The notes under the pieces are model-generated. The model worked only from the letters and a program-made list of their open reading frames with translations. It was not told the DNA's origin and did no database searches. Made by a program: the position numbers and the translations under genes. Of a stretch of DNA of 64,000 bases, positions 8,471 through 29,208 are shown piece by piece. The stretch lies in the NCBI GenBank assembly GCA_035477615.1, contig DATIKJ010000051.1, positions 1,009 to 65,008 of the forward strand. The letters are read 5' to 3'. Within the stretch, counting starts at the first letter, position 1; every line of letters begins with the position of its first letter. The DNA is from Spirochaetia bacterium (GTDB taxonomy: Bacteria > Patescibacteriota > Microgenomatia > UBA1400 > MFAQ01).

Positions 8471-10276
8471 ATGACCAAGTTTTTTACCAACATCAAAGAA
8501 TTTTCCCAAACATACTCTTCCACAGTCAAAATCGCTTGGGAAACAGATCGTTCTGTTTTTCTCAAAATATCCCTTGCCAACGCCTTAAATGGTGCTCTTG
8601 TCTACCCAAGTCTTTTAATTGCCAAACTTCTCATAGACTCAGTCATGATCTCCATTACCACTCATGATATCTCCACTGGTATGAAAGGTATGATTATCGC
8701 CGCTATTTTGGGTCTTCTAGTTGACAGAGTACAACAAATACTTCAAGAAATTGATAATGTCTACAGCGGCCAACTTTCCAATCTAATTTCCGAAAAAATC
8801 CAAGTATCCATATCAAGAAAATTAAACTTATTACCTGTATCTACCGCCGAAGACCCAAACACCAGAAACATTCTCCAAAAGGTTATCGACAATGCTGGCC
8901 GTTCTGTCTGGTCACTTATTATTCCTATCTCCACCCTTCCCGAACTCCTTCTTACTATCATCTCTACCGCAATTCCAATTATTACCTTCCAACCTCTGAT
9001 TATCATTCCTAGTATTATTCTTGCTATTCCCAACATTATCATCGGTGTCGGTCATTCTAAAGCCCAACACGCTCTCTCCACCGAGTTCTCTCCCAAATGG
9101 CGTGTCTGGAGTGCTTTAGAAGACTTTGCCACAAAGGGGCGTTTCTTATATGAAAACAAAATTCTAAGTCATGTCGAGATTCTTCTCAGTCGCCGTTTCA
9201 AACTTGCCAAAGAAATATTCGGTCGTCGCCAAAAACTTGGTGCAAATTTTGCCAAAAAACGCCAAATTGCTTCTCTTCCTCTCTCTGTATTTGAAACCGG
9301 CACTAAACTCTATCTCTATTACTTAGCTATTACTCAGACACTTACTCTTGGTACCGCTCAAATAACAAGCAACGCCATCAACCAATTTATCTCAAGTATC
9401 AGTCGTCTAATAAGACAAGCCAACGACATCTTTCAAAACTATCTTTTCATTAATGACTATGAAACATTTATGGCTCTTCCAGAAGAAAACCAAACCAAAG
9501 GTATCCACTTCCCCGATAAAATCAATCAAGGCATTGAGTTTCAGCACGTCTATTTCAAATACCCCAAATCAAAAAACTGGATATTAAATGATGTCTCTTT
9601 CAAAATAGATCCCGCCGACAATCTTGCTATCGTTGGCCAAAACGGCGCTGGTAAAACTACCCTTATCAAACTTCTTTGTCGTTTTTACGAACCCCAAAAA
9701 GGAATAATCTTAATCAATGGTAAAAACATTAATGATTACAACATCAAAGAATACCGTTTTAAATTCTCTGCTCTTTTTCAAGACTTTGCCCAGTATCCTT
9801 TTTCTGTCGAAGATAATATTCGCTTTGGTGATATCTCTCAAAAAAGAAGTCTCCGTAAAATAAAACAAGCCGCCATGCTCACCGGCATCACCAACTTCAT
9901 AGAAATGCTTCCATTAAAATACCAGAATCCTCTAGATAAAGAATTTAAGGATGGCGTTGAACCATCAAAAGGTCTGTGGCAAAGAGTGGCATTAGCTCGC
10001 ATCCTTTACCGTCCTTCAGAATTTCTTATCCTCGATGAACCAACTTCCAACGTCGACCCTCAATCTGAAGAAGAAATTTTTGAACAAGTTCTAAAAATCG
10101 CCAAAGAAAAAATTATTTTCCTTGTATCTCATCGCTTCTCCACCGTAAGAAAAGCCGATAAAATCTTAGTTCTCGAACACGGCACCGTCGTCGAACACGG
10201 CACACACCATGAACTAATGGCCAAAAATGGTCGTTACAAAGAATTATTTGATATTCAAGCCGAGAGTTTCCGCTAG
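8471..10276 (+). CDS. ABC exporter, fused permease-ATPase, with degenerate signature motif
   Basis: 601 aa; N-terminal TMD, Walker A GQNGAGKTT, Walker B LILDEPTS, H-loop SHR; signature LSGGQ replaced by PSKGLWQ. Confidence 0.85.
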   Translation: MTKFFTNIKEFSQTYSSTVKIAWETDRSVFLKISLANALNGALVYPSLLIAKLLIDSVMISITTHDISTGMKGMIIAAILGLLVDRVQQILQEIDNVYSGQLSNLISEKIQVSISRKLNLLPVSTAEDPNTRNILQKVIDNAGRSVWSLIIPISTLPELLLTIISTAIPIITFQPLIIIPSIILAIPNIIIGVGHSKAQHALSTEFSPKWRVWSALEDFATKGRFLYENKILSHVEILLSRRFKLAKEIFGRRQKLGANFAKKRQIASLPLSVFETGTKLYLYYLAITQTLTLGTAQITSNAINQFISSISRLIRQANDIFQNYLFINDYETFMALPEENQTKGIHFPDKINQGIEFQHVYFKYPKSKNWILNDVSFKIDPADNLAIVGQNGAGKTTLIKLLCRFYEPQKGIILINGKNINDYNIKEYRFKFSALFQDFAQYPFSVEDNIRFGDISQKRSLRKIKQAAMLTGITNFIEMLPLKYQNPLDKEFKDGVEPSKGLWQRVALARILYRPSEFLILDEPTSNVDPQSEEEIFEQVLKIAKEKIIFLVSHRFSTVRKADKILVLEHGTVVEHGTHHELMAKNGRYKELFDIQAESFR

Positions 10277-10774
10277 CTCTTTAATTATCTCGTCAAATTC
10301 ATCGTCGAGTTCTTTTATCTCTTCCTTACTTAACTTAGATAATACATAGTCTGCCCCGGTTCCATAGCTAATCCCAGGTTCCCTGTTATCAATTCCAATT
10401 CGAACTCTCAAAAAATCTTTTCTTCCCAAATACTGTTCTACAGATTTCAAGCCATTATGAACTTTAGGACCTACTTCAGTCTGAATCTTATACTCACCAA
10501 AGGCAATGTCCAAGTCGTCATGTACTACTACTACCTGATCAATTACCATTTTATAAAATCCCATTATTTTCCGTACCGCCCTTCCTGACTCATTCATATA
10601 AGTACTCGGCTTTGCCAAAATCAACTCACCTCTTTTCAACACCTCAGCCTCTTGTTTCCGATCAAGCCCAAATTTTTCCTTCCCTGCAAGCTTATTAACA
10701 AACAAAAATCCTGCGTTATGTCGCGTTTTTTCGTAATCTTCACCTGAATTTCCCAGTCCAACAATTAAATACAT
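10244..10774 (-). CDS. pth: Peptidyl-tRNA hydrolase
   Basis: 176 aa; MYLIVGLGN..G..Y..TRHNAGF N-terminal signature. Confidence 0.9.
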   Translation of the reverse strand: MYLIVGLGNSGEDYEKTRHNAGFLFVNKLAGKEKFGLDRKQEAEVLKRGELILAKPSTYMNESGRAVRKIMGFYKMVIDQVVVVHDDLDIAFGEYKIQTEVGPKVHNGLKSVEQYLGRKDFLRVRIGIDNREPGISYGTGADYVLSKLSKEEIKELDDEFDEIIKELAETLGLNIK

Positions 10775-12658: not shown

Positions 12659-13303
12659 ATGGATCAAATTCTTCAAAGTATACTTGATATGGTCAAAACA
12701 CATGGCTCTCTTGCCATGTTAGTCGGTGGAATCACCGAACAAATAATTGTCCCCATCCCCTCACCAATTATCTCTATGTCTGGTGGAGCTTTTTTGATTT
12801 CCCCCAATAATCATTTTTTCCAATCTTTATTAGATATCATTCTCAAAGTTTCCCTTCCATACTCAATTGGAGCTGTACTAGGAACCAGTCTGATTTTCCT
12901 AATTGCCTTTTTTGGAGGACAACCAATAATTGACAAGTTTGGAAAATATGTCGGTATAAAATGGTCGCTTATAGAAAAAATTAAGGCAGATTTTAAAAAG
13001 ACCATATCAGACGAGTTATTTATTCTTATAGCAATTTCAATTCCTGTTGTTCCTGTTTCACTTATAACTGCTTTTTGTGGTGGTTTTCGAATAAAACCAA
13101 TTAAATTTTATCCTCTAGCTTTTTTAGCCCTAATAATTCGCTCTACCATACTAGGATTTCTTGGTTTCAAGATGGGAGAAGCTTTTACCGAGATAGCAAA
13201 CGGACTAGATAAAATTGAAAGTATCTTAACTGTCGTTATTGCTGTTCTGGTTCTTGGTTTCCTTTTTCTTCAAAGAGAAAAATGGCTCAAGAAGAACAGT
13301 TAG
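12659..13303 (+). CDS. DedA/VTT-domain-like membrane protein
   Basis: 214 aa, about 5 TM helices; VPIPSPI motif region resembling DedA/SNARE-associated family. Confidence 0.5.
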   Translation: MDQILQSILDMVKTHGSLAMLVGGITEQIIVPIPSPIISMSGGAFLISPNNHFFQSLLDIILKVSLPYSIGAVLGTSLIFLIAFFGGQPIIDKFGKYVGIKWSLIEKIKADFKKTISDELFILIAISIPVVPVSLITAFCGGFRIKPIKFYPLAFLALIIRSTILGFLGFKMGEAFTEIANGLDKIESILTVVIAVLVLGFLFLQREKWLKKNS

Positions 13304-15002
13304 ATATCTTCGCTATCTCTTCAACCTCTTTCCAGGTTGTCGATTGATCAGCTCTCTTATCCTCACGGAATCGAACTAGACGAGGAAAGCGCAAAGCTAT
13401 TCCCCCAGCATGTACATTACTAATAGTTATTTCATCTGCTGCCACTTCCACCACCACCCTAGGTTCTACCCAAACATCTGCCAAAAGTGTCCCTTCAACC
13501 AAATAATTTTTTGGTTTTTCTTTTAACTCTATCCCATCAAGTTTCTTTCTCAAACTCCTAAACTCATCATCAGTCAATCCTGTACCAATCTTAGCCAAAC
13601 TAACCCAAGACTCGCCTTTTTTTAGTCCCACCAAAAAAGCCCCAATTCCAAAACCAACTCTTTTTCCTCTTCCGTAGTAATATCCTAAAATCACCAAATC
13701 CAAAGTATCCGACAATTTACCCGATGTTCCCTCCACTTCTTTTATTTTTACCCAGTTCCATCCTTGTCTTCCTGGCAAATATCTACCATCCCACACTTTT
13801 AACACTGCTCCCTCAAAACCCTCACTCAAATATTTCTCATGTAATTTCTTTACCTCATCTGGATTACTAGTTCTCACAAACTCATCAACCACTATCGTCT
13901 CGTTAGACTTAACTACGTTTTCCAGTATTTCTCTTCTCTCAAAATATGGTTTATCTATCAAACTCTCACCATTTTTACTCAAAATATCAAACAGAAAAAA
14001 TCTCATCGGCACCAACTCCGCTGCATCGGCAATATTATGTTTTCGTTTTCGTGTCATTGTCATCTGAAAAGGTAACACTTTCCCTGTCTTTCTTTCATAC
14101 CCTGCCGCCTCACAATCCATGATCACTTCATCTGCTTCAATCCATTTACCCATTTCCATAAGCTCAGGAAACATCCAACTATTTTCTTCCAAATTTCTTG
14201 TATATGTTTTAATTTCATTCTTTAATCTATTAAAGTGAATCTGCAATCGTGTTCCGTCATACTTTCTCTCCACTGCCACATCCTTCATCTTATCTACAAT
14301 CTCTCCGTATTCATTTAGTCTCTGACATAAAGCCGGCACAACCGGCACCCCCACTTCCACCTTAATATCTCTCAAACCAGTCATCCCTTTTTCCTTAAAC
14401 ATTTTTGTTATCAGTCCCGGATCAGGATAAATCTGGAATACGGAGTCCAACTCTTTTCTCAAAGTCTTATTTCCGTTTTCTATCTGTGATAATGCATCAA
14501 AAACTGTCTTTGCAGAAAATCCCAAACGCAGTCTTCCAACAACCATTCTAGAAATATACTTTCTCTCTAAAGCACTCACTTCTAGTAAAATCTCTGATAA
14601 TTTGTTTACTTTTCTATCTTGACTTCCCAGACCCCCATCCTCAGCAATCAAAAGTAAATAATCATAGACCTCTATTAAACTATGATTTTCCCTCTTTTCA
14701 TTTTGAAAAGGTAGCTTTTCAAGCAATACTCCCAAATCTCCAATTTTTTTATAATCATTCATCACCTCTTCAGTTGATATTCCAGCACCTTGAGAAATTG
14801 CCCTAATAACCATCTTAACCGCCATTCCAAATTCCTTATTAGCAAAGTCAGGTCCTAGTTGTCCCAATACCAGATAGATTCCTTTATTTATTTCAGCTGT
14901 ATTCATTTTTTCGATCAGCTCCGCCAACACATCAGTAATGGCCAATCTCGAAGATATCTTTTCCAATTTTTCTAGATACTCGGCAAATTCCTTAAACAGC
15001 AT
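13287..15002 (-). CDS. ATP-dependent DNA ligase (archaeal/eukaryotic-type Lig)
   Basis: Motif I KYDGTRLQI, motif IV EGAVLK, motif V/VI WVKIK; N-terminal DNA-binding domain; start set at MLFKEF (15002); the ORF track extends to 15206 through a GC-rich structured region. Confidence 0.85.
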   Translation of the reverse strand: MLFKEFAEYLEKLEKISSRLAITDVLAELIEKMNTAEINKGIYLVLGQLGPDFANKEFGMAVKMVIRAISQGAGISTEEVMNDYKKIGDLGVLLEKLPFQNEKRENHSLIEVYDYLLLIAEDGGLGSQDRKVNKLSEILLEVSALERKYISRMVVGRLRLGFSAKTVFDALSQIENGNKTLRKELDSVFQIYPDPGLITKMFKEKGMTGLRDIKVEVGVPVVPALCQRLNEYGEIVDKMKDVAVERKYDGTRLQIHFNRLKNEIKTYTRNLEENSWMFPELMEMGKWIEADEVIMDCEAAGYERKTGKVLPFQMTMTRKRKHNIADAAELVPMRFFLFDILSKNGESLIDKPYFERREILENVVKSNETIVVDEFVRTSNPDEVKKLHEKYLSEGFEGAVLKVWDGRYLPGRQGWNWVKIKEVEGTSGKLSDTLDLVILGYYYGRGKRVGFGIGAFLVGLKKGESWVSLAKIGTGLTDDEFRSLRKKLDGIELKEKPKNYLVEGTLLADVWVEPRVVVEVAADEITISNVHAGGIALRFPRLVRFREDKRADQSTTWKEVEEIAKISNCSS

Positions 15003-15268
15003 ACTCACATTGTAACTCACACAAATCGGTATAAATACTTGATTCCAGAAATTAGATTTTTTCTCTTTCCGTTTGGCGTTTAGTATTTTTGACAATGAGT
15101 CGCAGTCCATCGTTTTCTTGACATTCAGGCTACTGCCCGCGACGCTACGCGATGAGCGGCTAGAGTCAAGAAAACAGGAATCGACGGTCACCGAAGGTGA
15201 CGTCACAAAATAATAAATGACAAAAGAGGAAAAGAGAAATAATCAATATCTTCCATAAAAGTACTACT

Positions 15269-23810: not shown

Positions 23811-24902
<1,092 letters not shown>

Positions 24903-25080
24903 AGACTACCAGTATTATATCTTAATCACTATCAAATTGGGCACGGAAATCACCAAAAAAGTTGTTAATTAGGCTCGATCGTGCTAAAATACCCATGTTC
25001 GTTAATTTGCGGGTGGAAGGTAAGTATCTTGCGAGGCTCATAATCTCGCTTAACTAGGGGGCGGAACCCTAGACCCGCAA

Positions 25081-25458
25081 CTATTTTAGAAGTGCCCACC
25101 ACTTCTGCCAATTGTCTACCTGTTTTTCTTCAATTTTAGCTTCATTTGTGCCTAACAGGTTGCCTTTTGGTAGTACAGCCACTACTTCTCCTACTTTCTG
25201 CATATTCAACTGTTCTCTGATGATCTTTTCCTTGAATTCCTCGGTCATCACTGTACTCAGCTTATCCTTTAACATTTGATTTTTTGCCTCTTCTTCCGCC
25301 AATCTGACTTTTGATTCCTCAATCCGACTATACCCCTTTTTAATCTGCCAAAGATCTTTAGCTAGCGAAAAAATAAGTATCCAGGCAACAACCAAAATTA
25401 TGGCCTTAATCCAATCTTTTTTGTGTTCTTTTCTGTTTTCTCTATTTAGGGCTTGCAT
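25081..25458 (-). CDS. Septum-formation initiator-like protein (FtsB/DivIC family): single TM plus coiled coil
   Basis: 125 aa; N-terminal TM (IILVVAWILIFSL), then heptad-rich coiled coil typical of FtsB/FtsL/DivIC. Confidence 0.5.
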   Translation of the reverse strand: MQALNRENRKEHKKDWIKAIILVVAWILIFSLAKDLWQIKKGYSRIEESKVRLAEEEAKNQMLKDKLSTVMTEEFKEKIIREQLNMQKVGEVVAVLPKGNLLGTNEAKIEEKQVDNWQKWWALLK

Positions 25459-25511: not shown

Positions 25512-26387
25512 ATGGAACAAATTGACCAAAACATCAAACAAGCTATTACTGCTTTTAAAGCCTTCCTGGCTTCCCAAGGCAGGGCTTCTGCTACTATTTT
25601 AGCCTACTCAAAAGATATTGAGCAATTGGCTACTTTCGTCGCCAAGTCTAACAAAGCTAACCTCTCCGAAGTAACCAAGGAAGACATTGATGCCTTCAAA
25701 GACAGTCTTTCTGAACAAAACTACACCACCAAATCCATCTCCAGAAAGATCAACTCAATCAAGTCCTTCTTTGCCTATGTTTTGGCCAATGGTGCTATTT
25801 CTGAAAATCCAGCCACAAACGTCACTCACCCCAAGTACGACATCAAACCTCCTCGTATCCTCAACAAAATTGAGTATCGTGCTCTTCGTGATGCTTGTCG
25901 TGAAGACTTAAGAATGGCTGCCATTGTTGAGCTTCTTCTTCAAACTGGTATGCGTATTTCTGAACTGGCTAACCTCAAAATCGGCGATATCGATCTTACG
26001 ATCAACCAAATCACCATTCGCGCCTACGAATCTCATCCAGAACGTGTCATTCCCCTAAACCAACCTGTTAAAGAGTCTCTTGCTCGTTATATGGAAACCC
26101 GCCCCAAGAGCGGTAATACCTTCGTTTTCATCACCAAGACTGGTAATGCTTTCTTAATCAGAAACATCCGTTCCAATCTTGACCGTTACTTCCACATTGC
26201 TGGTATTGAAAACGCCAAGGTTAATGACTTAAGACACACTTTCATCGCTCAGCAACTTACTTCTGGTAGTCCTTTGGTCTACATCAGTAAGCTCGTTGGC
26301 CACAAAAGACTTTCTACCACTGAAAAGTATCTTGAATTCATTTCTGAAAAGCCAGCGAAAGATAAGCCAAAGCTTATCGACCTTTAA
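25512..26387 (+). CDS. Tyrosine site-specific recombinase, XerC/XerD-like
   Basis: 291 aa; N-terminal core-binding (SAM-like) domain, catalytic R (GMRISEL), LRHTF (HxxR), GHKRLSTTEKY (nucleophilic Tyr). Confidence 0.85.
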   Translation: MEQIDQNIKQAITAFKAFLASQGRASATILAYSKDIEQLATFVAKSNKANLSEVTKEDIDAFKDSLSEQNYTTKSISRKINSIKSFFAYVLANGAISENPATNVTHPKYDIKPPRILNKIEYRALRDACREDLRMAAIVELLLQTGMRISELANLKIGDIDLTINQITIRAYESHPERVIPLNQPVKESLARYMETRPKSGNTFVFITKTGNAFLIRNIRSNLDRYFHIAGIENAKVNDLRHTFIAQQLTSGSPLVYISKLVGHKRLSTTEKYLEFISEKPAKDKPKLIDL

Positions 26388-26779: not shown

Positions 26780-26783
26780 CTAG

Positions 26784-26857
26784 TGGGCCGACCAGGATTC
26801 GAACCTGGGACATCGAAGGTATAAGCTTCGCGCTCTAACCAGCTGAGCTATCGGCCC
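26784..26857 (-). tRNA. tRNA-Ile with UAU anticodon
   Basis: Minus strand GGGCCGA-TA-GCTC-AGCTGGTTA-GAGC-G-CGAAG-CTTATAC-CTTCG-ATGTC-CCAGG-TTCGAAT-CCTGG-TCGGCCC-A; D-arm identical in style to bacterial tRNA-Ile; anticodon positions 34-36 = TAT. Confidence 0.8.
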
Positions 26858-26883: not shown

Positions 26884-29208
26884 TTAAAGATTACTTCTTT
26901 TTTGAATTTCCTCCTCTACCTCATTCACATCTCTACCGTACTTCAATCTTGACAGTTCTTTAATCATTCTAGAAATTTCAGGGCTACCTTGGGCCTTCTC
27001 TGCCTTTAAATCACGTTCTACATTCATCGAAAAAGGAGGTACTGGTGACTCATTTATAATCGTTTTTGTATAAACAATACGCGCAGGAACATTAGTTAAA
27101 TCACTTTCATTAAAAGTTGGCTCAAACTCCTTAGTCAAAATCTGAGCATCTTGCATACCAACACGATATGTCATTAAAGTACCAACATTTCCAAATATGG
27201 CGTCACGGATATTTTCATCAAGCTGACTAATAAATTGATTGGCCAAAGTAAGTGATACATTATACTTACGCACTTCTGAAAGCATCTGAGCAAAGTCAGG
27301 AGTAGCAAAGTTCTGAAACTCATCAACATATAAATTAAATGGCGGTCTTTGTTCTACTGATACGTTTTGTCGCGATAAAGCCGCCGCCAAAATTTTTGGT
27401 ATTAAAATCAATCCAAGAAAACTGGCATCTTCTTCTCCTAAAAGACCCTTAGCCAACTTCAAGAAAACAATCTTTTTGTTATCCATCGCCTCGCGGAAAT
27501 TTAGAGTACTCTTTGATTGACCAATGATATTTCTCACCCTTTTATTAGTAACAAAGCGTCCAAACTTTGAAGAAATATAGTCTAGTGTTTCACTTTTATG
27601 AAAGTCTGAAGTCTGAGCAATCTGATCCGTCCAATAGCGTCTTACAATTTGATCCTTTACTAAAGGTAGTATTTCCTGTACATACTTTTGGTCAGTCAAC
27701 GCACGGTTTACCTCTATAAACGTCGACCCAGGGACCATCGCCACAGTCAACATAGCATTACGAACAGCATGTTCAAATCGAGCCCCAATCATGCCAGTTC
27801 TGTGTGGATCAAACAGTTTATACATAAGGTTAATAATTGAAGATGCCACCTGGTACATTTCGTCATAATTATTTACCTCGAGCATATTAAATCCAATTGG
27901 TCTATCATCATCAGTTGGATCAAAGAAAATTACATCTTCAGCTCTCTCGGGGGGAACTAATTCCATCAACTCTTCAATACCCTCACCATGAGGCTCCAAG
28001 AAACACAACCCCCTCCCTGCTCTCATGTCTTGAATAATCATCGACTTTAAAAGCTGGGTTTTACCAGTACCAGTCCTTCCAATGATATACATATGGCGCA
28101 TTCTGTCTCGATCACCCATATATATATTCCTCTCCTGACCACGATACATCGATCTACCAAGCCACAATCCGTTATCGGGAAAACCTCCTGTCGCTGGAGC
28201 TGCCTTGGCTGTCAACCAATATATATGTGGAGTATCGATAGTCTTATTTGGTAAATGCCAAATAGTAGCCAGCTCATCGGTTGATAATACCGAGTTATTC
28301 CCCCACATGTTTTGATAACGATACAAAAAATCCACCATAAACATTTGTTTCAACCGAATATTTCTACTCGAAAAACTATTCTGACTTCCAGCAAACTGTG
28401 AAAATGTTCCCTTTAAATTTGAAAGATTGGCCTTCGCCATTCCTTCATTTGGAGCTACACTGATTATCCTTATACTCGTCAAAAATCCTACCTTACTACA
28501 TTTATTAGTGATTGCCTCCATCTCTTGTGGATTCATCTTAAACTTCGCCTTCTCTGGATTTGCCTCATCTTTCTTCAAACGAGCCACATAACCTTCACCC
28601 GACTTACTCCAAGAAGACTCTGCTGGTGAAATAATTATCTGAATTGCCGCCGCCTCATTATCTCCAAACTTCGCCAGTGAAGCCGTAATTGCTGCCAAAG
28701 AATCAACTGGTAGCTCTTTGTATGACTTGATTGGTTTAAAACTTGGGTTCTTCAAAGCCAACTCTGTAAAGGCCACTGCCGCATCTTTATAAAAAATATT
28801 GTACTCATCAACTTGTTTAACTTGTGCCCCAGAATACGTCCCTGCAATCAGTTTTTCCACCAACTCCACATTATCTCTGTGGCACGACACATAAAATCGA
28901 ATATCTTCTTTTTTACCCACAATCTCGAGGGACAGATGTTGTTGTGATTTATATTTCTGCCAAAAACCACCTTTTTTAATCGAAAACAAAGAAGAAAACA
29001 TCTGTTCTACTGCGTCAACCTTAACTTCATTATCCTTCGGTACCGCAATCTCCATCAGTACAAAATTCATACTCACCGTTTCTCTATTTCTGTGTCTAAG
29101 CCACAAAACAAACATCATCCAACAAAAAATTAGTGCACCAATGACCACAATCAGTCCTAAAATAATTACTGCTGTGTACTGAATCCAATAACTGTAGTTA
29201 TTGATCAT
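26884..29208 (-). CDS. Type IV coupling protein-like ATPase (VirD4/TraG/TraD family, FtsK-HerA superfamily) with large atypical N-terminal domain
   Basis: 774 aa; N-terminal TM segment, about 340 aa unknown domain, Walker A GRTGTGKTQ, DPxGE-like FLEPHGE, Walker B LYVDEFQNF, TraG-D_C-like segment (RKYNVSLTLANQFISQL); about 265 aa spacing between Walker A and Walker B, as in T4CPs rather than FtsK. Confidence 0.7.
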   Translation of the reverse strand: MINNYSYWIQYTAVIILGLIVVIGALIFCWMMFVLWLRHRNRETVSMNFVLMEIAVPKDNEVKVDAVEQMFSSLFSIKKGGFWQKYKSQQHLSLEIVGKKEDIRFYVSCHRDNVELVEKLIAGTYSGAQVKQVDEYNIFYKDAAVAFTELALKNPSFKPIKSYKELPVDSLAAITASLAKFGDNEAAAIQIIISPAESSWSKSGEGYVARLKKDEANPEKAKFKMNPQEMEAITNKCSKVGFLTSIRIISVAPNEGMAKANLSNLKGTFSQFAGSQNSFSSRNIRLKQMFMVDFLYRYQNMWGNNSVLSTDELATIWHLPNKTIDTPHIYWLTAKAAPATGGFPDNGLWLGRSMYRGQERNIYMGDRDRMRHMYIIGRTGTGKTQLLKSMIIQDMRAGRGLCFLEPHGEGIEELMELVPPERAEDVIFFDPTDDDRPIGFNMLEVNNYDEMYQVASSIINLMYKLFDPHRTGMIGARFEHAVRNAMLTVAMVPGSTFIEVNRALTDQKYVQEILPLVKDQIVRRYWTDQIAQTSDFHKSETLDYISSKFGRFVTNKRVRNIIGQSKSTLNFREAMDNKKIVFLKLAKGLLGEEDASFLGLILIPKILAAALSRQNVSVEQRPPFNLYVDEFQNFATPDFAQMLSEVRKYNVSLTLANQFISQLDENIRDAIFGNVGTLMTYRVGMQDAQILTKEFEPTFNESDLTNVPARIVYTKTIINESPVPPFSMNVERDLKAEKAQGSPEISRMIKELSRLKYGRDVNEVEEEIQKRSNL

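Follow-up and report, generated by a model that had tools for sequence, protein, structure and literature searches.

A candidate initiator tRNA gene of non-canonical form, overlooked by standard tRNA finders, in a Collierbacteria-like genome

In Escherichia coli, the mismatch at positions 1:72 of the initiator shields fMet-tRNA from peptidyl-tRNA hydrolase (Pth). Position 1:72 and the pair R11:Y24 are recognition elements of the formylase (PMC9976931), and the roles of the acceptor pairs G2:C71 and C3:G70 and of A73 have also been described (PMC5389676, PMC9976931). In the anticodon stem, the pairs 29:41, 30:40 and 31:39 can read au/GC/gu or GC/GC/gu in natural initiators, G30:C40 being essential (PMC5389676). 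The locus described here lies in a stretch of 64,000 nucleotides (hereafter the window) of contig DATIKJ010000051.1, assigned by its tryptophanyl-tRNA synthetase (TrpRS) to Candidatus Collierbacteria-like Patescibacteria (closest trpS locus UBA2277, TrpRS 86% identical). Positions 25008 to 25081 of its plus strand most likely constitute a functional tRNA gene with anticodon CAU, orthologous to the genes of bacterial tRNAfMet, and the product would be the initiator of this ultra-small bacterium; from comparison of sequences, the probability of this reading is put at about 0.85. The body of this tRNA is unusual, and standard tRNA finders overlook the gene as a result.

A cloverleaf with anticodon CAU

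Folding of positions 25007–25080 of the plus strand with RNAfold gives a four-arm cloverleaf of -30.3 kcal/mol (z = -2.8), and RNAalifold independently returns the same cloverleaf from an alignment of related sequences. The acceptor stem has seven base pairs (bp), like that of canonical tRNAs, and the overall length before CCA is 73 nucleotides (nt), as in E. coli tRNAfMet. Sequences of the window form are called type A below; 21 distinct variants are known, and a covariance model named R1 was built from them alone. The parts of the gene are as follows.

25008–25081 (+): putative initiator-type tRNA gene of non-canonical form, anticodon CAU, positions 1–73 plus C74 (RNAfold, RNAalifold, covariation, ARAGORN -mt, model R1 at 102 bits)
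25008–25014 (+): 5' strand of the acceptor stem, U1-G2-C3-G4-G5-G6-U7, which pairs with 25073–25079
25015–25016 (+): linker G8 G9, G8 replacing the near-universal U8 (invariant in the 21 variants)
25017–25030 (+): D arm, with a 5-bp stem AAGGU/AUCUU (25017–25021 / 25026–25030) that includes A11:U24 and a 4-nt loop A-A18-G19-U (RNAfold, RNAalifold)
25031–25049 (+): anticodon arm, with G26:C44, C27:G43, G28:C42, A29:U41, G30:C40 and G31·U39 and the loop CUCAUAA at 25037–25043 (compensatory changes in two pairs)
25039–25041 (+): anticodon CAU (sequence, ARAGORN -mt)
25050–25053 (+): variable region UUAA, positions 45–48 (RNAfold, alignment)
25054–25072 (+): T arm, with a 6-bp stem CUAGGG/CCCUAG and a 7-nt loop G54-G55-C56-G57-G58-A-A (compensatory changes in three pairs)
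25073–25079 (+): 3' strand of the acceptor stem, A66-C-C-C-G-C-A72 (covariation count)
25080–25081 (+): discriminator A73 and encoded C74, the remainder of CCA not being encoded (invariant in 36 distinct flanks)

A first-pass annotation of the window had reported here an unexplained GC-rich element of tRNA size, and most of its description stands. The helices that it listed are all present: TTGCGGGT (25007–25014) with ACCCGCAA (25073–25080), GCGAG (25031–25035) with CTCGC (25045–25049) and CTAGGG (25054–25059) with CCCTAG (25067–25072). The anticodon-like loop with U33, CAU and A37 reads C-U-C-A-U-A-A once G25036·U25044 is counted, and the proportions of a tRNA are borne out by the cloverleaf. 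The element is indeed rich in GC (54% against 39% for the window, within the top 0.9% among 74-nt windows), and it indeed has neither G18G19 nor the T-Psi-C sequence. It is not, however, a three-way junction but a four-way one: the supposed linker of D-arm length forms the helix AAGGU/AUCUU, found by RNAfold and by RNAalifold and accompanied by an A:U to G:C change. As for the proposed 8-bp closing helix, seven of its pairs are conserved while the eighth, T25007–A25080, is not a real one, because position -1 varies among the distinct flanks (T/A/C/G = 25/5/5/1) while A73 is constant; A25080 is the discriminator. An 8-bp acceptor stem and a nucleotide -1 like that of tRNA-His are ruled out, position -1 varying without any compensation at 73. 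Furthermore, CCA is fully encoded in 11 of the 36 distinct flanks and A73 with C74 in all of them. In these flanks, the 3' end behaves like that of a tRNA.

Several positions depart from the canonical tRNA body, which has U8, G18-G19, T54-Psi55-C56 and a 5-bp T stem: in the window these read G8, A18-G19 and G54-G55-C56, with a 6-bp T stem. With such a T loop, m5U54 and Psi55 would be impossible. G19 is invariant in the 21 variants.

The conservation of the element was examined in loci anchored on trpS, chosen without regard to the RNA. In six of them (L001–L004, L006 and L008), its location and strand are unchanged; in L005, only its 3' half is found, next to an N-masked stretch. A scan of metagenomes with the pattern GGCTCATAATCNNGCTTAA enlarged the type A set to the 21 distinct sequences. 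All 504 of the 504 pair cells of the cloverleaf are standard in these variants, and double-sided changes occur at seven pairs, every one of the four helices being represented. For example, the anticodon stem alternates between GCGAGG/UCUCGC and GCAGGG/UCCUGC, two pairs switching between G:C and A:U, and the T stem between CUAGGG/CCCUAG and CCGAGG/CCUCGG. In the same way, pair 7:66 switches between U:A and G:C in 10 of the 21 variants and the D-stem pair 10:25 between A:U and G:C in five. Covariation scores 0.282, compared with 0.138 after shuffling, and none of 500 shuffles reaches the observed value, keeping in mind that simple statistics of this kind are inflated by the common ancestry of the related sequences. 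When partners are slid by 1–3 columns, pairing falls to 29–58%. The variable region UUAA lies inside the search pattern and its invariance is therefore uninformative. Taken together, conservation and covariation indicate that the element is far more than a product of chance.

These variants also point to the strand. G·U or U·G occupies 51 cells, two pairs being invariantly so, and the equivalents on the minus strand are C x A mismatches. Since the G·U pairs are valid on the plus strand only, the plus strand is that of the RNA. Folding energy alone is moderately unusual on both strands (z = -3.3 for the minus-strand fold of the element with RNAfold).

In the window, ARAGORN finds two tRNAs only, tRNA-Met(CAU) at 24828–24902 (-) and tRNA-Ile(UAU) at 26783–26857 (-), and Rfam gives the same two. 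The sole Rfam 'match' to the element, a partial T arm against alpha_tmRNA with 3.8 bits, is noise. In its metazoan-mitochondrial mode, ARAGORN calls mtRNA-Met(cat) at 25008–25081. In standard use, it overlooks 20 of the 21 variants and sees only that of L108, the sole type A variant with G18 and U55. Model R1 recovers not only type A but also, at 34–52 bits, initiator-type tRNAs that have the acceptor end G2-G6/A72/A73; these carry C1xA72 in L015, L041, L058 and L069 and U1:A72 in L010 and L014. In the same loci, it gives no match to the elongator tRNA-Met genes. The first-pass annotation had foreseen that standard tools might leave the matter unsettled, and Rfam and ARAGORN in its default and relaxed modes do give no call. 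It had also proposed that the absence of any covariance-model hit would speak against a functional RNA; Rfam gives none, yet on that ground the element would be wrongly dismissed.

Initiator identity and alternative readings

The anticodon loop CUCAUAA carries CAU in seven nucleotides with U33 and A37, as expected of an initiator. The acceptor pairs from G2 to G6 with C67 to C71, together with A72 and A73, are the same as in E. coli tRNAfMet, whose reference sequence was confirmed in all 5426 E. coli genomes. G2:C71, C3:G70 and A73 are invariant, which agrees with the initiator type. The pair A11:U24 (alignment columns 11:22), a form of R11:Y24, is also invariant, and so is G30:C40. The pairs 29:41, 30:40 and 31:39 read A:U, G:C and G·U in the window and G:C, G:C and G·U in relatives; the window thus has the anticodon stem of au/GC/gu initiators, the strict form with three G:C pairs being absent.

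The position of the gene points in the same direction. On the minus strand, its neighbours are the genes of FtsH, of a protein with a tRNA-binding domain and of TrpRS, the elongator tRNA-Met and then, past the element, a DivIC/FtsB-like gene. As far out as L010 and L014, the genes follow one another in the same order: integrase, DivIC, this tRNA, elongator tRNA-Met, trpS. Furthermore, L010, L014 and L015 have, beside the same DivIC-like and recombinase genes, an initiator-type tRNA-Met(CAU) that ARAGORN does call; it carries C1xA72 and an encoded CCA in L015, and U1:A72 in L010 and L014. The synteny suggests that the gene at 25008–25081 is the positional orthologue of these recognised initiators. 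Besides L015, C1xA72 occurs among the relatives in L041, L058 and L069 and in the sequences called type B below. In the 49 type A loci (396 kb), ARAGORN finds 47 tRNA-Met(CAU) genes, all of the elongator type except one visible type A variant, and no canonical initiator. The type A tRNA may hence be the sole initiator.

Several points weigh against this reading. The 49 loci are the scope of that statement, and a canonical initiator could be encoded elsewhere in these genomes. All 21 variants have the Watson-Crick pair U1:A72 where an initiator would have its hallmark mismatch. Only one of the three anticodon-stem pairs from 29:41 to 31:39 is a true G:C in the window. Rfam gives the element no match at gathering score, nor does RF00005 match it at E<=10 on slices of three sizes, those of 601 nt and 95 nt among them; ARAGORN calls nothing there by default or with -ps or -ps80, and with -ps60 makes meaningless calls only. 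The pattern used to search the metagenomes determined alignment columns 28–38 and 41–46 in advance, though not both partners of the covarying pairs at columns 26:40 and 27:39. Several stem pairs, including the sixth of the T stem, never vary, so that covariation is silent on them. Lastly, a scan of 62 open reading frames (ORFs) of the window found no fmt, def, truB or trmA, only Pth and several aminoacyl-tRNA synthetases; the missing fmt and def in 64 kb are uninformative either way. On formylation, Lee et al. in 1991 and Guillon et al. in 1992 are said to have found that a weak U:A at 1:72 still permits it.

A functional tRNA with anticodon CAU could also serve elsewhere than in initiation, either as a precursor of tRNA-Ile2, which reads AUA after lysidine modification of C34, or as a second, odd elongator tRNA-Met. 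CAU is common to all three classes, and the paired U1:A72 and the single true G:C among 29:41, 30:40 and 31:39 are atypical of initiators, the former being elongator-like. However, the acceptor stem is of the tRNAfMet type (G2:C71, C3:G70, G4:C69, G5:C68, G6:C67, A73), A11:U24 and G30:C40 are initiator features, and the gene grades, through its relatives, into initiators with C1xA72 and CCA at the same locus. A canonical elongator tRNA-Met adjoins it and a tRNA-Ile(UAU), capable of reading AUA, lies 1.7 kb away. Because both are in the window, the functions of reading AUG and AUA are all accounted for. The initiator-type acceptor stem and the presence of tRNA-Ile(UAU) also set the element apart from tRNA-Ile2; C4:G69 and C5:G68, the TilS determinants of E. 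coli tRNA-Ile2, are absent here. A role of the CAU tRNA outside initiation is therefore very unlikely.

Readings in which the element is no working tRNA fare worse. It could be a tRNA-like structure outside translation, with a role in regulation, in mimicry or in the processing of the neighbouring transcripts, or else as terminator or 3' stabiliser of the DivIC/ftsB-like transcript on the minus strand. It directly abuts the stop codon of the DivIC-like gene (25081–25083), its minus strand folds stably and tRNA models do not recognise it. Against this stand the G·U pairs, two of them invariant, that are valid on the plus strand only, the conserved anticodon loop, A73 and C74, the full CCA of 11 of the 36 flanks, in keeping with the 3' end of a real tRNA, a conserved plus-strand promoter of its own (see below) and the positional continuity with ordinary initiators. 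The scan for intrinsic terminators finds no terminator-like site at this place on the minus strand, where no T-run is adjacent (the nearest lies about 47 nt beyond) and where G·U becomes C x A. The terminator and the regulatory mimic had both been considered in the first-pass annotation; the strand asymmetry and the promoter argue against the former, and the features listed above indicate a genuine initiator-type tRNA gene in place of the latter. This explanation is highly improbable. The same annotation had considered a degraded tRNA and an integration-site remnant. A Phage_integrase-family gene does lie 430 nt from the element and tRNA genes are common integration sites, so that a decaying pseudogene, or an attachment-site remnant of a mobile element using this tyrosine recombinase, could be imagined. 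Yet no pair is broken in the 21 variants, compensatory changes in four helices indicate purifying selection, and no second copy or direct repeat of the tRNA was found in the window with R1. Even distant relatives keep the integrase, the DivIC-like gene, the two tRNAs and trpS in synteny; the recombinase itself is 78–91% identical and syntenic in all close relatives and still lies beside DivIC in L010, L014 and L015, which suggests a resident Xer-like gene and not a recent arrival. Covariation and this deep synteny effectively refute decay or remnant, which has next to no likelihood left. The initiator tRNA remains the reading adopted here.

Predicted expression and neighbourhood of the gene

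The spacer between the two tRNA-Met genes and the divergent partner itself contain the following features.

24962–24990 (+): promoter-like TTGTTA - 17 nt - TGcTAAAAT with extended -10 (promoter scan; kept in flanks)
24955–24960 (+): A6 tract just upstream of the -35, equivalent to the minus-strand T-run (sequence; A-rich stretches precede the -35 in several relatives)
24991–25007 (+): predicted start site and 5' leader of about 11 nt, for removal by RNase P (start and processing predicted)
24828–24902 (-): canonical elongator-type tRNA-Met(CAU), the divergent partner (ARAGORN; Rfam tRNA 68.8 bits; tRNA pairing repeated in relatives)

In 34 of 38 distinct flanks, TGnTAnMAT is found 24–27 nt upstream of the first nucleotide of the tRNA, and in 36 of 38 at any offset. 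The T-run that the first-pass annotation had seen on the minus strand exists, as A6 at 24955–24960 about 47 nt off, but it belongs to the promoter region of the plus strand, where it could act as an UP-like element. Many flanks also carry TATTTTACCA, or TGGTAAAATA when read from the opposite strand, consistent with a promoter of the divergent elongator tRNA-Met placed back to back with this one. Another promoter-like sequence of the minus strand, TTGGCA-17-TAAAAT at 25111–25083, lies inside the end of the DivIC-like coding sequence, is not kept in the flanks of most relatives and is attributed to chance. In the predicted leader, GTTCG at 24997–25001 (+), some 7–12 nt before tRNA position 1, is conserved (GTTY in 33 of 38 flanks); this motif starts at about the predicted start of transcription.

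A plausible course from gene to ribosome can be drawn from these elements. Transcription would begin at the tRNA's own extended -10 promoter, about 11 nt before U1, in the spacer shared with the back-to-back elongator tRNA-Met gene. RNase P would cut the leader and leave U1; after 3' trimming, the CCA-adding enzyme would complete CCA, this enzyme being needed because C74 alone is encoded. Methionyl-tRNA synthetase (MetRS) would add methionine by way of CAU and A73. Fmt would probably formylate the product, which retains G2:C71, C3:G70 and A11:U24 and has a weak U:A at 1:72 in place of a mismatch. IF2 would then deliver it directly to the ribosomal P site, licensed by G30:C40. By analogy with tRNASec, a 13-bp stack of acceptor and T stems might let the paired 1:72 end escape EF-Tu and Pth. 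The window carries a peptidyl-tRNA hydrolase gene at 10244–10774 (-), identified by Pfam PF01195 (E = 1.7e-52).

The divergent elongator tRNA-Met has canonical D and T loops. It shows a G1·U72 wobble and an A31xA39 mismatch that leaves a 4-bp anticodon stem, both conserved in relatives; 27% of the elongator tRNA-Met genes of bacteria are reported to have an anticodon stem of this length (PMC13092985). In some relatives (e.g., L084 and L103), the elongator tRNA-Met has the T loop UCCGACC, with C55 for U55, and a normal G18G19 D loop, which would be a further departure from Psi55 in this lineage. The tRNA-Ile(UAU) is syntenic in 32 of the 49 related loci, which suggests that AUA is read in this clade without a lysidine-modified tRNA-Ile2.

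Other observations concern the surroundings. The Phage_integrase-family (Xer-like tyrosine recombinase) gene occupies 25512–26387 (+). Just past the tRNA, within the 3' end of the DivIC-like ORF, a hairpin AGAAGTG-CCCAC-CACTTCT (25088–25106) and a conserved CCACCAC recur in relatives and probably owe their conservation to the C-terminal peptide and not to a signal in the RNA. A TraG/VirD4-like coupling protein (26884–29208, -) adjoins the tRNA-Ile, and an ATP-dependent DNA ligase of archaeal/eukaryotic type is encoded at 13287–15206 (-); both are ordinary for this bacterial group. Among the related records, L005:2806-2846 (-) shows that a run of N in a public Collierbacteria record hides the 5' half of the tRNA gene. 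In L007:1-157 (-), a homologue is split in its anticodon loop, after U33, by a group I intron (RF00028, 34.6 bits, E = 1.6e-7, the match being cut by the end of the locus). To our knowledge, group I introns in tRNA-fMet are otherwise known from cyanobacteria.

A remodelled elbow and comparison with known tRNAs

Aligned by structure, 35 distinct initiator sequences grade into one another. In type B, which is 72 nt long, C1xA72 goes together with an encoded CCA and with a T stem of 5 bp that closes the loop UGCGAGU or UUCGACU. In type C, of 74 nt, positions 1 and 72 are U1·G72 and the T stem has 6 bp. The window tRNA belongs to type A (73 nt), which combines U1:A72 with a T stem of 6 bp, a D loop of 4 nt and a T loop that reads, for example, GGCGGAA, AGCGUGA, GGCGUAA or AUCGAAA, this last one in L108. 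All three types have G8 for U8 and U14 for A14. The T stem of types A and C is exactly one bp longer than that of type B, and the acceptor/T stack is therefore of 13 bp (7/6) instead of 12. Position 1:72 is paired in each of the 23 tRNAs whose T stem has 6 bp. A tie between T-stem length and 1:72 pairing was considered and set aside: in L010 and L014, a paired 1:72 accompanies a T stem of 5 bp, and one event could have given rise to all the 6-bp forms.

At the elbow, C56 is present in all 35 sequences and G19 throughout. Positions 18 and 55 change together: A18/G55 is found in 30 sequences and G18/U55 in five, with no mixed combination. The corresponding Fisher test (p = 3e-6) ignores phylogeny, which counts against giving it full weight, and the switch appears in four sister comparisons (L160 with type B, L108 with type A, L010 with L014 and L041 with L058). 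From these sequences, the elbow would seem rebuilt and not lost, G19:C56 being retained and a covarying A18·G55 contact replacing G18·Psi55. The outer pair G19:C56 is a platform on which RNase P and ribosomal elements stack. A18 with G55 was also seen in four otherwise ordinary initiators, L015:563-634 (-), L069:2127-2197 (+), L058:2721-2791 (+) and L014:1483-1552 (+), whose T loops are UGCAAAU or UGCGAAU; L014 has U1:A72 and the other three C1xA72. L015 and L069 are labelled WWE3, L058 Saccharibacteria, and L014 is an unclassified bacterial metagenome-assembled genome (MAG). Because A18/G55 occurs in genomes labelled WWE3 and Saccharibacteria, the altered elbow extends past the Collierbacteria-like clade.

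A bolder proposal is that the identity of this presumed sole initiator is encoded in its body, that is, in the 13-bp 7/6 stack, the short D loop and an elbow made of A18·G55 and G19:C56 without U54 or Psi55. This is speculative and rather doubtful at present. If it held, the body and not C1xA72 would repel EF-Tu and peptidyl-tRNA hydrolase and direct the tRNA to formylase, IF2 and the P site. It would represent a second natural solution to the discrimination between bacterial initiators and elongators, together with a new tertiary base-pair isostere at the elbow.

The gene matters in several other respects. Genomes of this clade, which belongs to the candidate phyla radiation (CPR), will seem to have no initiator tRNA when annotated with tools of the covariance-model or ARAGORN type, while R1 or a simple pattern recovers the gene. 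It would also provide a natural experiment on initiation, a pathway that here does without U8, U54, Psi55, a D loop of standard form and an acceptor/T stack of 12 bp, while G19:C56, A11:U24, G30:C40 and the acceptor sequence are the parts retained. The covariation of positions 18 and 55 predicts that another contact, not described before, can take the place of G18·Psi55 at the elbow. Furthermore, being compact, rich in GC and divergent in its body, this initiator is a candidate scaffold for orthogonal initiation. In the literature searched, which was incomplete so that a prior description is possible, no account was found of such initiators, of initiator tRNAs of the CPR or of an A18/G55 pair.

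Among known tRNAs, the eukaryotic cytoplasmic initiator has A1:U72, A54 and A60 and keeps Psi55, G18G19 and a 5-bp T stem. It shares with the window tRNA a weak A/U pair at 1:72 and a T loop without U54 that ends with A60 (AUCGAAA in L108), a resemblance that is probably convergent or coincidental. The initiators of mycoplasmas and alpha-proteobacteria that have variant anticodon stems keep, as far as is known, canonical D and T arms and a 1:72 mismatch, unlike the window tRNA. Their stems read au/GC/gu, as in the window, or GC/GC/gu, as in its relatives (PMC5389676).

tRNASec shares with the window tRNA a 13-bp acceptor/T stack, an extended D stem, a 4-nt D loop and G19:C56 (PMC7609411, PMC5389517). 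In tRNASec, however, the 13 bp are divided 8/5 or 9/4, the variable arm is long, the anticodon is UCA, and G18G19 and T-Psi-C are kept; the split of 7/6, the variable region of 4–5 nt and CAU exclude the window tRNA from this class. In the same way, tRNAPyl, especially that of Desulfitobacterium hafniense, shares G8, a small D loop, the absence of G18G19 and T-Psi-C and an anticodon stem that can be extended to 6 bp (PMC7609411). It is an elongator or suppressor with CUA, one linker nucleotide, a 3-nt variable loop and a 5-bp T stem, whereas the window tRNA has CAU, the two linker nucleotides G8 G9 and UUAA as variable region, and so does not belong to it. Mammalian mitochondrial type II tRNAs also lack the consensus motifs of the D and T loops (PMC7609411), and ARAGORN sees the element in its metazoan-mitochondrial mode only. 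In contrast to them, the stems of the window tRNA are GC-rich and perfectly paired, G19:C56 is retained and the covarying positions 18 and 55 argue that the contact between D and T loops persists.

E. coli tRNAfMet (metZWV/metY) shares with the window tRNA the loop CUCAUAA, the pairs G2:C71 to G6:C67, A72-A73, A11:U24, G12:C23 and G30:C40. The window tRNA differs from it by U1:A72 for C1xA72, G8 for U8, a 6-bp T stem, a D stem of 5 bp (4 bp in E. coli), a D loop of 4 nt (9 nt in E. coli), the T loop GGCGGAA with A18/G55 (UUCAAAU with G18/U55 in E. coli) and a CCA that is not fully encoded. It departs from the canonical definition of an initiator in the 1:72 mismatch, U8, G18, T54/Psi55 and the length of the T stem, and is a variant rather than a standard member of the class.

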